From positions 1-40,732 of IMG/VR virus record IMGVR_UViG_2859827302_000005: 40,732 bases of DNA. One strand, 5' to 3'. A model generated the notes under the pieces. The model searched no databases and was not told the DNA's origin. It was given only the letters and a program-made list of their open reading frames with translations. Origin of the DNA: a virus. Taxonomy: Duplodnaviria > Heunggongvirae > Uroviricota > Caudoviricetes. Of this stretch, positions 1,320 through 38,517 are shown piece by piece (positions within the stretch are counted from its first letter, which is position 1; every line of letters begins with the position of its first letter). The position numbers and the translations under genes are program-made.

Positions 1320-1500
1320 CATAATCCCAATGATTACTCCCTGACAGGGTTCGTAGGCCACTCAATATCAGGTGCAGTTGATGTATCAACACGGTTCAGC
1401 AACACCCGATACTTTTTCCAGGCTTCCAGCAATGAGGTTTCTTCCTCCGTTGCAATTTCCAGATCTGCAGCATCCTGAAGCGGCGCAATATGCTCACTGG
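1285..1500. repeat. direct repeat copy B (3' end of intact tfa plus downstream hairpin)
   Basis: Homologous to 236..450; together the two copies flank the methyltransferase gene. Confidence 0.6.
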
Positions 1501-1918
1501 CTACCTGCATCAGGTTGTTTTTTGTTTCTTCCGCCTCCCGGATCCGGAACATTTTTTCTGCTTCCGTACCCTTCACCCAGGCTGTGCCGTTCCACTTCTG
1601 AAACTCCCCTTCCGGCGATAACCAGGTAACATTTTCCGGTAACGGACCGAGTTCAGAAATAAATAACTCGTCCCCTGACGCTACGTCATAAACCGTTTTA
1701 CCCCGATGGTCTTCAACGAGATGCCACGATGCCTCATCACTGTTGAAAACAGCCACAAAGCCAGCAGGAATATCTGGTGGTGCAATATCGGTACTGTTTG
1801 CTGGCAGACCTGTATGAGGCGGAATATATGCGTCACCTTCACCAATAAATTCATTAGTTCCGGCCAGCAGATTATAAATTTTTATGGTCCGTGCTTGTTC
1901 ACTCATTCTGAATGCCAT
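1334..1918 (-). CDS. tfa: tail fiber assembly protein Tfa (lambda orf-194 type)
   Basis: 194 aa, near-identical to lambda Tfa as I recall it (MAFRMSEQ...[12 protein letters not shown]). Its ATG overlaps the stf stop codon. Confidence 0.9.
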
Positions 1919-30850: not shown

Positions 30851-30930
30851 GGTTCTTTCCACCATCTGAAAAATGGGTGATGCTGCCAACTTACTGATTT
30901 AGTGTATGATGGTGTTTTTGAGGTGCTCCA

Positions 30931-31206
30931 GTGGCTTCTGTTTCTATCAGCTGTCCCTCCTGTTCAGCTACTGACGGGGTGGTGCGTAACGGCAAAAGCA
31001 CTGCCGGACATCAGCGCTATCTCTGCTCTCACTGCCGTAAAACATGGCAACTGCAGTTCACTTACACCGCTTCTCAACCCGGTACGCACCAGAAAATTAT
31101 TGATATGGCCATGAATGGCGTTGGATGCCGGGCAACTGCACGCATTATGGGCGTTAGCCTCAACACGATTTTACGTCACTTAAAAAACTCAGGCCGCAGT
31201 CGGTAA
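30931..31206 (+). CDS. insA: IS1 InsA
   Basis: 91 aa, [43 protein letters not shown]…. Confidence 0.9.
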
Positions 31207-31250
31207 CCTCGCGCATACAGCCGGGCAGTGACGTCATCGTCTGCGCGGAA

Positions 31251-31628
31251 ATGGACGAACAGTGGGGATACGTCGGGGCTAAATCGCGCCAGCGCTGGCT
31301 GTTTTACGCGTATGACAGGCTCCGGAAGACGGTTGTTGCGCACGTATTCGGTGAACGCACTATGGCGACGCTGGGGCGTCTTATGAGCTTGCTGTCACCC
31401 TTTGACGTGGTGATATGGATGACGGATGGCTGGCCACTGTATGAATCCCGCCTGAAGGGAAAGCTGCACGTAATCAGCAAGCGATATACGCAGCGAATTG
31501 AGCGGCATAACCTGAATCTGAGGCAGCACCTGGCACGGCTGGGACGGAAGTCGCTGTCGTTCTCAAAATCGGTGGAGCTGCATGACAAAGTCATCGGGCA
31601 TTATCTGAACATAAAACACTATCAATAA
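31251..31628 (+). CDS. insB: IS1 InsB frame (C-terminal part of the InsAB' transposase)
   Basis: …[51 protein letters not shown]…; expressed by -1 frameshift from insA. Confidence 0.8.
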
Positions 31629-31886
31629 GTTGGAGTCATTACCTGAAAAATGATTCTTTAAAATACCTGACATGTAATACAGAAAAAAACAAAACCATAC
31701 CTTAAATAAAAACCTCATCATCAAGCAGATATGCATGGATAAACTACAAGACGAGATATAAACCACCATGCATTTAAATAAACAATAAACAACATCAGAA
31801 AAATAATTCTGCTCTATGGTTTACAATCAAAAATATCATTTATACTTTTCAGAACATCACCAGCAAGACATAAACAAGGAAACTAA

Positions 31887-32222
31887 ATGAAGTGGATTGT
31901 GATTGATACAGTTATCCAGCCATCATGCGGAATATCTTTTTCAGTCATATGGAGTAAAATAAAATTAATAATCTGGTATCAATCGGATGCTTTCTTACCT
32001 CCTGAAAGTATATTTACACTGACTCACACAGGCATCATGCTCAATAACAAAGTGCTACCTGTAACCATTTACAACGTAGTGCCATTCAATAAAACATTCT
32101 GGAATTTAATCAAAAACAGCCAGGAATGCCCTACAAATACAGATAACGTATTGAATGAATGCTTTAATAACCGTTGCACTCTGCAAATATGTCCTTATGG
32201 ACTAAAACAACAAAGTCCATAA
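31887..32222 (+). CDS. hypothetical 111-aa protein, AT-rich, Cys-rich C-terminus
   Basis: AAGGA Shine-Dalgarno 7 nt before the ATG, very AT-rich upstream region, opposite strand to the late genes. Five Cys in the last ~35 aa. No family recognised. Confidence 0.45.
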
Positions 32223-32257
32223 GGAGTTTACTCACATCTGACAAAATCAATATAAAC

Positions 32258-32455
32258 AGCCCCTCCGTAGAGGGGCTGGAGAGTGGCGCTATGTGCCATT
32301 GCATGGTGCCGGGTGCCTCCCGGTGAATTCAGTACCAGCACCTGAATCCGCGATTATCCCATATACCTACTCGCTGATTGCCCCTCCGCACAGGGGGATT
32401 CACCATGCGAAATTTTTTAACAAACTTCCCGCTGGCCAGACAATAATCGCCAGCC
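32258..32455. repeat. structured non-coding element, paralog 1 (candidate sRNA or recombination element)
   Basis: Shares ordered conserved blocks with 32721..32920: GC hairpin agcccctccgtagaggggct, gcatggtgccgggtgcctcccggtgaattcag, a hairpin attcag-N9-ctgaat, agggggattcaccatgcga, and ttttttaacaaa…gccagacaat. No conserved ORF. Confidence 0.4.
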
Positions 32456-32720
32456 TGAATTATGAGCAACGTAGCATTTTACGGGAAAACTGTTTTCTGC
32501 AGTAAAAAGGCCCGCCGGAGCGAGCCTGGAAGGATAGCGGTCATGTGATGCCGGTTTCCCGGTAACTCAGCATCGGTATCTGAGTCAACGTTTTCTCTAC
32601 TGGGTCATTTCCGATACGTTCCGCCTTCCGGCAGACTTTCATCACGTCAGAAAATATAGCACCCTGAGTAACAGGACAGTACTCAGAATTCAGGAAACTG
32701 TGACACATCCTGCACAGAAA

Positions 32721-32920
32721 AGCCCCTCCGGAGAGGGGCTGAAGTATAGCCTAATTTCTGTCTGTCGCATGGTGCCAGGTGCCTCCCGGTAAATTCAGCC
32801 TGTCTACTGAATTTGCATGTTCTCTGGATCATACACTTTGCCAGATGCCCCGCCGCTGAGGGGGATTCACCATGCGATGTAATTTTTAACAAATTCTCCG
32901 GCAGCCAGACAATCATCAAG
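32721..32920. repeat. structured non-coding element, paralog 2
   Basis: Same block order as 32258..32455. The internal hairpin keeps its stem but changes its loop (aaattcag-N8-ctgaattt). Confidence 0.4.
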
Positions 32921-33109
32921 CTGTGGAATTGTGAGGTATTTAAAAATTTCAACGGGTAACTGATACCCTGCTAATCGCCTGATGCTTTCTTTTTCAGCAA
33001 CGGGAAAGCAACAACCACCACACCCGCCACCAAAACATCATCAGACAGCACCGACATTATCCGGCTGCTGAAGTCCACCATCACCACCAGAAACAACAGG
33101 AGTGCAACC

Positions 33110-33157
33110 ACAGCTGCTTAGAAGGCAATTGCTCTGTCCGGCTGAGCTAACAACGCA
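33110..33157 (-). pseudogene. tRNA-Arg(UCU) argO-like remnant (5' half only)
   Basis: Minus strand GCGTTGTTAGCTCAGCCGGACAGAGCAATTGCCTTCTAAGCAGC gives acceptor 5' strand, D-arm and anticodon arm (loop CTTCTAA). No T-arm or complementary acceptor 3' strand follows. Confidence 0.3.
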
Positions 33158-33170
33158 GAATACCGATAAA

Positions 33171-33247
33171 TGGACCGCCATCGAGAACTCGAACCCCGCG
33201 CAACCAGCTTCGAAGGCTGGCGCTCTATCCCGATGAGCTAATGGCGG
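33171..33247 (-). tRNA. argN: tRNA-Arg (anticodon UCG), argN-like
   Basis: Manual fold: 7-bp acceptor CCGCCAT/ATGGCGG, D-stem GCTC/GAGC, anticodon stem CCAGC/GCTGG with loop CTTCGAA, T-loop TTCGAGT (T-stem with two G-U pairs), 3' CCA encoded. Confidence 0.7.
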
Positions 33248-33254
33248 TATGTGA

Positions 33255-33330
33255 TGGTGGCCCTTGCTGGATTTGAACCAGCGACCTGGCGATTATGAGT
33301 CGCTCGCTCTCACCACTGAGCTAAAGGGCC
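33255..33330 (-). tRNA. ileZ: tRNA-Ile2 (anticodon CAU, lysidine type), ileZ-like
   Basis: Minus strand GGCCCTTTAGCTCAGTGGTGAGAGCGAGCGACTCATAATCGCCAGGTCGCTGGTTCAAATCCAGCAAGGGCCACCA, close to E. coli ileX as I recall it. Confidence 0.85.
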
Positions 33331-33370
33331 GGGAGCCGCATAATAACGACGCGTAATTAATTCTGCAATA

Positions 33371-34429
33371 TCATCCGTTCTGGCTGACTAAATCCTGTAC
33401 TTCCCGAACCGTCTGCTCAAAACGTCCGGTCTCCAGCTCAACGCCAATCGCACGACGCCCGAGCGCCAGTGCCGCTTTTACCGTTGAACCTGAGTCCATA
33501 AAAAAATCTGCAACCAGGTCACCCGGACGACTGCTTGCGCTGATTATCTGCTGCAGCATTTCTGCCGGTTTTTCGCACGGATGTTTCCCGGGATAGAACT
33601 GCACCGGTTTATGTGTCCACACATCCGTGTACGGCACCTGCGCCGTCACACCAAAATACCGCCGCAGATGCTTATATTCACTCTGCAGCTCCACATACTG
33701 CCGGTTCAGTGACGTATACGTATCCACCAGCTGGTAGTGGGGCTTTTCCAGTTCACCGCGCTGATGTTTCTCTTCTGCCACCCGGGCAAACAGCGACTGT
33801 AATTTCAGATAATCGCTTTCGTTCGGTAGCTGCCACTGACTGGCACTGAACCAGTGCGACACCATGTTTTTCTTTCCTGTGGCATCTGCAATCTGTTTTG
33901 CCGTTATCCCCAGGGCCGCGCGCGCATCACGAAAGTAAGAAATCAGCGGGGCCATCACATGCTGTTTCAGTGCACTGCCCTTCGCCGCATACCCGGCATC
34001 TTTCGGACGATACGGCCCCTGATAATGTTCCGCGAACAGAATGCGCTCTGTGGCGGGGAAATACGCCCGCAGGCTTTCCTTGTTGCATCCGTTCCAGCGT
34101 CCGGACGGCTTCGCCCAGATAATATGGTTCAGCACACTGAAGCGTTCACGCATCATGATTTCGATATCAGATGCCAGGCGATGACCACAGAACAGGTAAA
34201 GACTTCCGGCAGGTTTCAGCACCCGCCAGAACTGCGCCAGACACTGGTCCAGCCACTTCAGGTAATCATCGTCGCCCTTCCACTGGTTATCCCAGCCCTC
34301 AGGCTTCACTTTAAAGTACGGCGGGTCCGTGACTATCAGGTCAACAGAATTTTCGGGTAACGACCGGATAAATTCCAGGCAGTCGGCGTTGATTAACTCA
34401 CAACTGGATATTTTTACAGTATTAGCCAT
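33371..34429 (-). CDS. orphan DNA N6-adenine (or N4-cytosine) methyltransferase, beta class
   Basis: 352 aa with an N-terminal DPPY motif (LIVTDPPYF) and a C-terminal SAM motif (DLVADFFMDSGST). No adjacent restriction endonuclease gene. Confidence 0.85.
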   Translation of the reverse strand: MANTVKISSCELINADCLEFIRSLPENSVDLIVTDPPYFKVKPEGWDNQWKGDDDYLKWLDQCLAQFWRVLKPAGSLYLFCGHRLASDIEIMMRERFSVLNHIIWAKPSGRWNGCNKESLRAYFPATERILFAEHYQGPYRPKDAGYAAKGSALKQHVMAPLISYFRDARAALGITAKQIADATGKKNMVSHWFSASQWQLPNESDYLKLQSLFARVAEEKHQRGELEKPHYQLVDTYTSLNRQYVELQSEYKHLRRYFGVTAQVPYTDVWTHKPVQFYPGKHPCEKPAEMLQQIISASSRPGDLVADFFMDSGSTVKAALALGRRAIGVELETGRFEQTVREVQDLVSQNG

Positions 34430-35004: not shown

Positions 35005-35826
35005 CTATCGCGTTACCCTCTTTAACTGCCGCTCCGCCCATGCCTCTTCAATGTCAAACCGAACCACCAACGTATCGTAAAAGCGTTTCACTGATTTTTT
35101 CCACGTATCAAGCGTGATAGCACTCGTCACTTTGCATATGGCATTAAATGCCTCCGTTGATGGTAGTCTTTCACAGCCACGACCACCACAACGCTGGCAG
35201 TCTCTGATAACAGGCATACCACGTTTTACCGACTCTTCACGATGAATGGCGACACCACGCCCACGGCAATCCTTACAGGCGGTGGAAACCTCACCCTTTC
35301 CGCCACACTCCGGACAGGCAACTTTTACCACCTCCCTGACTTTTTTCCATTCTTCCCAGTAAGACGGATACACACCTTTCGTACACTTTGCCCATACCGG
35401 CGGCTTACCATCCGGATACTGGACCTTGTTTGTAAAAACTACGCTTTCAATAAATTTTTCCCCATAGCAACAAGGGCACTGCTTTTTACTCGCTGCGCTG
35501 CGGGCATAATCCTCAAAAGCGTACGAAGCCATAATGCGCATCACTACCGGTTTTATTTCTGCCGGAAGTTTTCTCAACGCCGCCACACGATCGCACCGAC
35601 TGAGTGCATAATCTGCCAGTAATTCTGTTGCCCGCGCCCTGTCATTCATACTGATGCCCATTTTCCCCAGGAACGCAGAAAACCCCATCTCAGCCCGATT
35701 CTGTGTCATGCCCTGCGCGGCCATCACATCAGTGATACTCAGCGCATCTTTTGACGTTGAGGCCGATACATCGGTCAGGCCAGGGGATTTTGGGGAGTAG
35801 TATTTCGGTAAATCTTCCAGTTTCAT
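35005..35826 (-). CDS. Q: late antiterminator Q (Q82/YdfT-like, zinc-finger)
   Basis: 273 aa with CxxC…CxxC motifs (CPECGGKGEV…CKDCRGRG, CQRCGGRGCERLPSTEAF) resembling the phage-82-type Q family as I recall it. ATGA overlap with the rusA stop. Confidence 0.65.
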   Translation of the reverse strand: MKLEDLPKYYSPKSPGLTDVSASTSKDALSITDVMAAQGMTQNRAEMGFSAFLGKMGISMNDRARATELLADYALSRCDRVAALRKLPAEIKPVVMRIMASYAFEDYARSAASKKQCPCCYGEKFIESVVFTNKVQYPDGKPPVWAKCTKGVYPSYWEEWKKVREVVKVACPECGGKGEVSTACKDCRGRGVAIHREESVKRGMPVIRDCQRCGGRGCERLPSTEAFNAICKVTSAITLDTWKKSVKRFYDTLVVRFDIEEAWAERQLKRVTR

Positions 35827-38070: not shown

Positions 38071-38226
38071 TTACTCCTCAGGTTCGTAAGCTGTGAAGAC
38101 AGCGACCTCCGTCTGGCCGGTTCGGATTCGTACCTCGCAGAGGTCTTTCCTCGTTACCAGTGCCGTCACAATGACGGTTAAACAGATGACGATCAGGGCG
38201 ATTAGCATCGCCTTTTGCTGCTTCAT
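38071..38226 (-). CDS. hok: Hok-family type I toxin
   Basis: MKQQKAMLIALIVICLTVIVTALVTRKDLCEVRIRTGQTEVAVFTAYEPEE, 51 aa. Confidence 0.9.
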   Translation of the reverse strand: MKQQKAMLIALIVICLTVIVTALVTRKDLCEVRIRTGQTEVAVFTAYEPEE

Positions 38227-38283
38227 AGCCTGCTTCTCCTTGCCTTTCGGCACGTAAGAGGCTAACCTACGTGTGTAGAGCAT
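38071..38283 (-). CDS. mok: Mok (overlapping reading frame that drives hok translation)
   Basis: 70-aa ORF in the same frame, extending 19 codons upstream of hok. Confidence 0.6.
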   Translation of the reverse strand: MLYTRRLASYVPKGKEKQAMKQQKAMLIALIVICLTVIVTALVTRKDLCEVRIRTGQTEVAVFTAYEPEE

Positions 38284-38300
38284 AGATATGGCCTCAGATT
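38230..38300 (+). ncRNA. sok: predicted Sok antisense RNA (approximate position)
   Basis: Placed by analogy with hok/sok loci, antisense to the mok start region. Boundaries not determined from sequence. Confidence 0.3.
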
Positions 38301-38517
38301 AATGTTAAGCGTCTTGCCGGACGCGTAATGTTAACTGGGGCTTTTCTCTATCTGCCTTTTGGTGTTCATGCCTGAGACAGATAGCCTCAAGCACCCGCTG
38401 CAATTCTACTTAACTCTCCTTTTCCCGCAAACCGTTTTTATCCCCAGCGGCAAATCGAATACACCACCAGCGCCACCGCCATCGCAATTCCTACCGTTGT
38501 TAATGCTTCAGGCCAGG

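Follow-up and report, generated by a model that had tools for sequence, protein, structure and literature searches.

Two structured non-coding elements in the late region of a prophage, which a first-pass annotation of the sequence had judged likely to be undescribed, are copies of a catalogued prophage sRNA family, Rfam RF02076 (full name 'Gammaproteobacterial sRNA STnc100'), and relatives of EcOnc27/sRNA103 and PasD1/PasD2, which have already been published. They lie in a 40,732-nt stretch of Caudoviricetes DNA (IMG/VR record IMGVR_UViG_2859827302_000005), analysed at its full length and called the window below. Both units are real, as that annotation had stated, but a third, diverged unit with its own terminator lies between them (32648..32501) and had been missed; the three are referred to here as A, B and C, in the order in which they follow one another on the minus strand (Table 1). 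The array is likely to encode three base-pairing sRNAs of the Hfq type that are transcribed independently and use a variable linker as the seed, and its terminators may in addition keep read-through transcription out of the lysis genes. Any novelty would lie in the recurrent tandem triplet together with its unannotated middle subtype, i.e. a variant inside a known family.

Table 1. Coordinates of the three sRNA units, their predicted parts and the neighbouring features in the window
Feature	Position	Strand	Basis or remark
Unit A, STnc100-family sRNA gene	32717..32912	-	RF02076, model R1, terminator scan, fold
Unit A promoter	-35 TTGTCT 32912..32907; 18-nt spacer; TGn 32891..32889; -10 TAAAAA 32888..32883	-	inferred by PasD alignment
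Unit A predicted start	~32875	-	inferred by alignment to PasD
Unit A helices	P1 5' 32875..32868; P3 32814..32791; P4 32789..32775; P1 3' 32774..32767	-	
Unit A single-stranded linker GACAGACAGAAAUUAGGCUAUACUUC	32766..32741	-	
Unit A terminator	32740..32721, then TTTC (UUUC)	-	terminator scan
Unit B, diverged third paralogue	32503..32661	-	sub-gathering Rfam score, model R1, terminator scan
Unit B promoter (predicted)	extended -10 TGcTATATT 32661..32653	-	without a good -35
Unit B predicted start	~32647	-	
Unit B P1, GUGAUG/CAUCAC	32645..32640 with 32550..32545	-	
Unit B helices	P2 32635..32620; P3-equivalent GACUCAG/CUGAGUU 32586..32564; P4 32562..32551	-	
Unit B linker AUGACCGCUAUCCUUCC	32544..32528	-	
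Unit B terminator	32527..32508 + UUUUU	-	terminator scan
Unit C, STnc100-family sRNA gene	32252..32443	-	RF02076, model R1, fold
Unit C promoter	-35 TTGTCT 32443..32438; TGn 32422..32420; -10 TAAAAA 32419..32414	-	predicted
Unit C predicted start	~32408	-	
Unit C helices	P1 5' 32408..32401; P2 32396..32381; P3 32349..32325; P4 32323..32309; P1 3' 32308..32301	-	
Unit C linker AAUGGCACAUAGCGCCACUCUCC	32300..32279	-	
Unit C terminator	32278..32257, then TTTAT (UUUAU)	-	terminator scan
Q antiterminator (PF03589)	35826..35005	-	
DNA methylase	34429..33371	-	
tRNA(CAT)	33330..33255	-	ARAGORN and Rfam call 'Met (CAT)'
tRNA-Arg(TCG)	after tRNA(CAT) in minus-strand order		
Truncated argO, 5' half of tRNA-Arg(UCU)	33157..33115	-	comparison to Sakai argO
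DUF3927 small membrane-protein gene	32971..33111	-	Pfam PF13064, E=3.8e-18; directly upstream of array
iraM-like ORF, 111 aa	31887..about 32225	+	RefSeq IraM label in 99.5 % identical region
IS1	~30890..31640	+	insA 30931..31206, insB 31251..31628
SASA/NanS-type esterase	beyond IS1, downstream of array		

Two family members and a diverged relative

The Rfam scan that the first-pass annotation had called for returned full-length RF02076 matches (model positions 1-206) on the minus strand for unit A (140.5 bits, E=3.9e-31, 32905..32712) and unit C (131.7 bits, E=6.9e-29, 32436..32248). At full length and with scores above the gathering score of 47 bits, both are members by the rule of the family, and their mutual similarity (about 75 bits in nhmmer) is far beyond chance. 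The functional strand of the array is the minus strand, which corrects the orientation given at first, and the blocks that had been listed are at the positions reported for them, except that the limits drawn around the units take in some 35-45 nt of promoter DNA. Both published STnc_100 qPCR primers (PMC12370729) are present in the unit C sequence.

Unit B falls below the gathering score (30 against 47 bits) and is a non-member by Rfam's own rule, yet it is a significant relative when the STnc100 model is run in E-value mode (E=3.2e-4, 32676..32501). Its kinship was also assessed with R1, a covariance model built from 31 non-redundant family members, none of them B-type, with which the whole window was scanned with filters off. 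R1 recovers unit B over its whole length, P1-P4 and terminator all aligning in register (42.3 bits, E=8.3e-10, 32648..32501), next to unit A (141.8 bits, 32876..32714) and unit C (154 bits), and in that scan it finds three units only, the next match reaching 17 bits without terminator or context support.

The predicted RNAs (32875..32717 for A, 32647..32503 for B and 32408..32252 for C) are about 145-160 nt long and have better folds than dinucleotide shuffles (z = -3.0, -2.6 and -3.3, respectively). In the shared fold, P1 encloses P2, a variable insert (V1), P3 and P4, and is followed by the single-stranded linker and the terminator. Neither the minimum-energy nor the centroid fold pairs the linkers of A and B, and that of C is mostly single-stranded. 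The minimum-energy fold of unit B has the same overall architecture, with an alternative pairing drawn in place of P3; its P1 differs from that of A and C by three double changes, all of which preserve pairing. A terminator scan returned nine terminator-like sites against 1.4 expected, three of them strong, on the minus strand and within 520 nt, and the GC-rich stems with tetraloop that the first-pass annotation had noticed are the intrinsic terminators of A and C on that strand. It was also right that the units have no open reading frame in common: an 89-aa minus-strand frame runs over one of them and a 70-aa plus-strand frame over the other.

Covariation and modularity

Homologues were collected by an exact 16-mer scan of viral contigs, which gave 120 loci; nhmmer identified 164 units in them, 101 of them unique, and the structure was evaluated on 31 non-redundant sequences (alignment A2). 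In this set, 97.6 % of the cells are paired compared with 93.1 % in shuffles, a value reached by none of 500 shuffles, and sliding the partner columns leaves just 37-53 % paired. Changes on both sides affect 19 of the 34 base pairs, compared with 4.2 in shuffles, and this covariation supports the idea of selection on RNA structure. Compensatory changes occur in five of eight pairs of P1, the long-range pairing GCAUGGUG/CACCAUGC that had been suspected at first, in all eight pairs of P3, which is the attcag/ctgaat hairpin of the first-pass annotation, and in six of eight pairs of the terminator. P2 and P4 are invariant among the 31 sequences; for P2 and for part of P1, sampling accounts for some of the constancy seen, because the exact 16-mer used to collect homologues covers the 5' strands of both helices (it is carried by 80 of 88 sequences). 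The family thus has the RF02076 structure, a long-range helix enclosing hairpins and followed by a 3' terminator hairpin, and the R1 alignment matches unit B to every helix. One viral contig carries on its minus strand (L009, 2269..3395) a tandem of four strongly diverged STnc100-like units (43-64 bits in nhmmer), two of which are the source of most compensatory changes in P1 and P3.

Conservation is distributed very unevenly along the RNA. Mean pairwise identity amounts to 0.90 and 0.79 in the scaffold and 0.82 in the terminator, and to 0.32 in insert V1 and 0.34 in the linker. The linkers, 17-26 nt long, are wholly different between paralogues A, B and C, and the 31 sequences carry 16 linker types and 19 V1 types in shuffled combinations, the insert of unit C, for example, being found with five different linkers. 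Judged from these alignments, the family looks like a fixed scaffold with exchangeable cassettes. So large a conserved scaffold, with invariant P2 and P4 loops, is unusual for an Hfq sRNA, and it may have another partner.

Genomic setting

The array is located in the late region of a lambdoid prophage and is co-oriented with late transcription; the minus-strand order is Q, methylase, tRNAs, DUF3927, the three RNA genes, convergent iraM, IS1 and esterase. It had been placed in the stx-equivalent slot, but it sits just downstream of that slot, which is taken here by the truncated argO tRNA and the DUF3927 gene. All recognised upstream neighbours, in the window and in 125 fetched loci, are on the same strand as the array and encode Q, the methylase, DUF3927 or Stx2B, with DUF3927 the nearest upstream gene in 33 of 125 arrays. 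The downstream neighbour, where recognised among the 125 arrays tallied, is the esterase in 69, convergent iraM in 31 and a holin in 12, esterase and holin lying on the strand of the array.

Several neighbouring features deserve a brief description. The argO half matches Sakai argO from its first base through the anticodon loop, bar one base, and breaks off where the DUF3927 gene begins; ARAGORN calls no tRNA at this place. The counterpart of tRNA(CAT) is annotated as tRNA-Ile in RefSeq (strain 10, which carries a near-identical prophage region) and as ileZ (anticodon cat) in Sakai Sp5; ileZ is of the lysidine-modified Ile2 type, and the Rfam score is 72.5 bits in the window, strain 10 and Sakai alike. 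The iraM-like ORF, which is AT-rich and has no Pfam family match, ends in a perfect 12-bp hairpin (32192..32225, loop AAAACAACAA) that stops 27 nt from the predicted end of the convergent unit C; one Stx2a phage record likewise carries an iraM annotation. By its insertion, IS1 separates iraM from the beginning of the NanS-type esterase gene, whose true start is likely MAFKHYDVV, about 40 nt inside the listed 631-aa ORF. Elsewhere in the window, a sok antitoxin RNA (RF01794, 117 bits) is encoded in the early region at 38396..38221 on the minus strand, as part of a type I toxin-antitoxin system of the hok/sok kind (strain 10 has a hokD annotation in the matching region), and a full-length match to Rfam IS009 (RF02111, 221 bits) lies at 1575..1377 on the same strand.

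Distribution of the array and the B-type triplet

When the 761-bp array was used as a query, matches were found in 2868 of 5426 complete E. coli genomes, at up to 12 places per genome, and the whole array (at least 80 % coverage) in 653. Unit B occurs in 673 of the 5426 genomes, in two alleles between which P2 covaries and the linker is identical, and it is never annotated in those 673 genomes; RefSeq/PGAP labels none of the copies examined. Among phage records, the matches are overwhelmingly to Stx-converting phages, and one record labels the feature 'Gammaproteobacterial sRNA STnc100'.

At the viral loci, an STnc100-type unit precedes every B-type unit, and another such unit follows 40-41 nt downstream of B in 15 of 16 loci and in the window; at locus L032, a truncated B-type unit is separated from the next unit by 1.7 kb. 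Every B-type unit for which downstream DNA was available has STnc100-type neighbours on both sides. These flanking units come in several sequence variants, and the triplet therefore exists in more than one allelic form. Tentatively, the succession STnc100-type/B-type/STnc100-type could represent an undescribed tandem sRNA cluster, with a middle subfamily missed by Rfam annotation, that evolves by exchange of linker cassettes on a fixed scaffold; the scaffold with its invariant loops could have a binding partner of its own.

Predicted promoters and start sites

The mapped 5' end of PasD2 (RNA-seq and northern blotting, table S6 of PMC8550237) aligns to the G of GCAUGGUG, which puts a conserved TTG(T/C/A)CT-N18-TAAAAA at -35/-10 in every aligned family member. 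Positions 1-29 of the RF02076 model precede this start and hence appear to be promoter DNA and not RNA. In the STnc100-type genes, TGn precedes the -10 hexamer, and the extended -10 of unit B, TGcTATATT, is kept in all B alleles. By this alignment, the promoters of A, B and C would be of the sigma-70 type and used at the corresponding start sites. A generic promoter scan did not call the TAAAAA hexamer, which is without the usual final T, as a -10 element. In Salmonella LT2, RpoD was found bound at STnc100 promoters (PMC10794520).

On the plus strand, promoter-like sites (TTAACA-16-GACAAT, 9 of 12 matches) are present at 32417..32444 and 32886..32913, in units C and A. Since they are the reverse complement of the minus-strand -10/-35 blocks and have no conserved counterpart in the Sakai or PasD copies, they are treated as mirror images and do not count as evidence for antisense genes, although divergent antisense transcription may occur.

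Relation to known sRNAs

Members of the family are known to be expressed. EDL933 transcribes 11 STnc100 copies, and northern blotting confirmed one of these (PMC5331693), and STnc_100 was found in outer-membrane vesicles of STEC (PMC12370729). The copy that follows stx2B overlaps the Hfq-crosslinked EcOnc27 of Tree et al. 2014, alias sRNA103 (PMC12711010, PMC7873438, PMC4104026), and SNPs in this copy are among the features that predict HUS (PMC12711010). The name sRNA103 comes from Gruber & Sperandio 2015; effects on fimZ and espA have been published, with no established mechanism. Convergent sRNA genes at the moron site were described in eight Sakai prophages by Tree et al. 2014 (PMC4104026).

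The Sakai Sp5 copy/EcOnc27 has helices P1-P4, the terminator and the promoter-like block in common with units A and C, and it occupies the same position, downstream of Q and tRNAs and upstream of the NanS esterase. It scores higher with the Rfam model than the units described here (207.7 compared with 132-141 bits), and differs in the variable insert and the linker. The order in Sp5 is Q, three tRNAs, stx2AB, STnc100 (starting 75 nt after stx2B), convergent AsxR and esterase, so a single STnc100 gene is paired there with convergent AsxR, whereas a tandem triplet faces convergent iraM in the window. AsxR and AgvB share the prophage region, Sakai AsxR being convergent with and adjacent to the STnc100 copy, but belong to a different and much shorter family (the AsxR model has 53 positions).

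The second group of relatives, PasD1 and PasD2 (Pearl Mizrahi et al. 2021), was recognised as structurally homologous to STnc100 in a preprint by Zhu, Shabalina & Storz 2026 (bioRxiv 10.64898/2026.05.13.724894). According to PMC8550237, PasD1 and PasD2 are abundant and detected by northern blotting at the predicted sizes, their linker is complementary to CUCACAGG, the motif of their RIL-seq targets, and the Pas sRNAs as a group show Hfq-dependent stability; in table S2, the PasD transcript level shows no significant drop in an hfq deletion by RNA-seq. In EPEC E2348/69, PasD1 and PasD2 each directly follow a DUF3927 gene, an upstream neighbour that they share with the array along with the promoter layout, the start position, the 5' scaffold (GCAUGGUGAAUCC..., P2, P3) and the design of scaffold, linker and terminator. 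P4, the 3' strand of P1, the linker and the terminator, on the other hand, differ in sequence (about 20 bits in nhmmer), and while the units here are tandem, the Pas copies are far apart and not tandem duplicates, according to the preprint. An identification of the units with PasD was considered and dropped: the seed CCUUGUGAG is absent, only the 5' scaffold is shared (alignment A1), and there is no near-identity extending to the GGCUGCGC terminator.

A further candidate, IpeX of DLP12, which we took to be a possible K-12 member of the STnc100 family, was likewise set aside, the DLP12 late region of MG1655 having no STnc100 match. A search of the literature by linker sequence found nothing. 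In OmrA/OmrB, the seed-bearing 5' end is the conserved part, unlike in the present array, where the structured body is conserved and the presumed seed is divergent. Like PrrF1/PrrF2, they otherwise resemble the array in being adjacent paralogous sRNA genes with their own promoters and terminators, a comparison taken from the preprint of Zhu et al.

A proposed mode of action and its alternatives

The units have the two features of the Hfq-dependent base-pairing class, a U-tailed intrinsic terminator and an accessible single-stranded segment, Hfq binding itself being predicted. The U-tail is the usual Hfq-binding module, and association of A, B and C with Hfq would be expected by analogy with EcOnc27 and PasD. 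Each gene would be transcribed from its own sigma-70-type promoter, TTGTCT-N18-TGnTAAAAA in A and C and the extended -10 TGcTATATT in B, starting at the first base of P1 and ending at the strong intrinsic terminator. The linker would then serve as the seed for pairing with target RNAs on Hfq, as proposed by analogy with PasD, whose RIL-seq seed is in the same linker; this presumed seed position is transferred from an RNA that shares only the 5' scaffold with the units (about 20 bits in nhmmer). Three such genes would provide the lysogen with three targeting specificities on one scaffold, and when Q is lacking, the three tandem terminators would stop transcripts from the tRNA/moron region before they reach the lysis genes.

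Could the units instead work mainly in cis, as a triple terminator barrier that insulates the lysis genes in lysogeny and is read through by Q-modified polymerase, the RNAs being by-products? In favour of this are three strong terminators packed into 520 nt and oriented with late transcription, at a fixed position between Q/PR' and the lysis genes, and reviews find it unclear why the sRNAs are arranged as they are here (PMC7873438). A terminator, however, needs only the last ~30 nt, and what is conserved and covarying in these units (P1 5/8, P3 8/8) includes a scaffold of about 110 nt upstream of it; moreover, each unit has its own conserved promoter-like block, and relatives accumulate as stable transcripts. 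We consider a mainly cis-acting array unlikely, and a terminator role in cis is probably additional to, and not exclusive of, the base-pairing function proposed above. Less likely still, by a good measure, is that the RNAs are anti-sRNA sponges like AsxR/AgvB that titrate a core-genome sRNA and do not regulate mRNAs. This idea draws on AsxR directly adjoining the STnc100 copy in Sakai Sp5 and on the linker of unit A, which contains GACAGACAG (32766..32758), nine nucleotides perfectly complementary to CUGUCUGUC in the 3' part of GcvB (K-12 gcvB, L126 297-502). The complement is real, but the A/GcvB duplex (-16.2 kcal/mol) is equalled or bettered by 31 % of shuffled linkers, B and C do no better than chance, and the GcvB sponge idea was abandoned for this reason. 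Nor are the units the published anti-sRNAs that had been put forward as candidates: neither AsxR (RF02703) nor AgvB (RF02702) has a match in 31600-33400 even at E<=5, although the AsxR model finds Sakai AsxR (88 bits) as a positive control. Finally, the PasD RIL-seq partners given in the part of PMC8550237 that lists them are nearly all mRNA segments.

The abundance of copies, with as many as 12 places in a single E. coli genome, and the pseudo 'hypothetical protein' fragments that PGAP puts over some of them could suggest MITE-like mobile repeats, recombination sites or protein-gene remnants. High copy number would, however, be expected if each lambdoid prophage contributes one copy, and every copy examined, in the window and the 125 fetched loci, has the same prophage position and the same orientation. 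A repeat scan of 31600-33400 found only the paralogous blocks and internal helices, with no bracketing or terminal inverted repeats and no target-site duplication. Against a coding origin speak the lack of a shared ORF, insert length differences that are not multiples of three, and substitutions that preserve base pairs and not codons. A mobile, recombinational or coding origin is thus scarcely credible. The reading of the elements as prophage regulatory sRNAs under selection for RNA structure, which the first-pass annotation had favoured, agrees with the Rfam matches, the covariation and the published close relatives.

Implications

The two flagged elements hold no new kind of biology; they extend a known family to the prophage of a non-Stx E. 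coli. Variation of clinical relevance just downstream of stx2 has been connected with this family (PMC12711010), and a large proportion of E. coli genomes carry its sRNA genes without annotation. About 29 nt of promoter DNA appear to be part of the Rfam model, which misses the diverged subtype represented by unit B. The triplets, with their shuffled linker cassettes, offer a natural system in which to study how phage sRNAs gain new targets.
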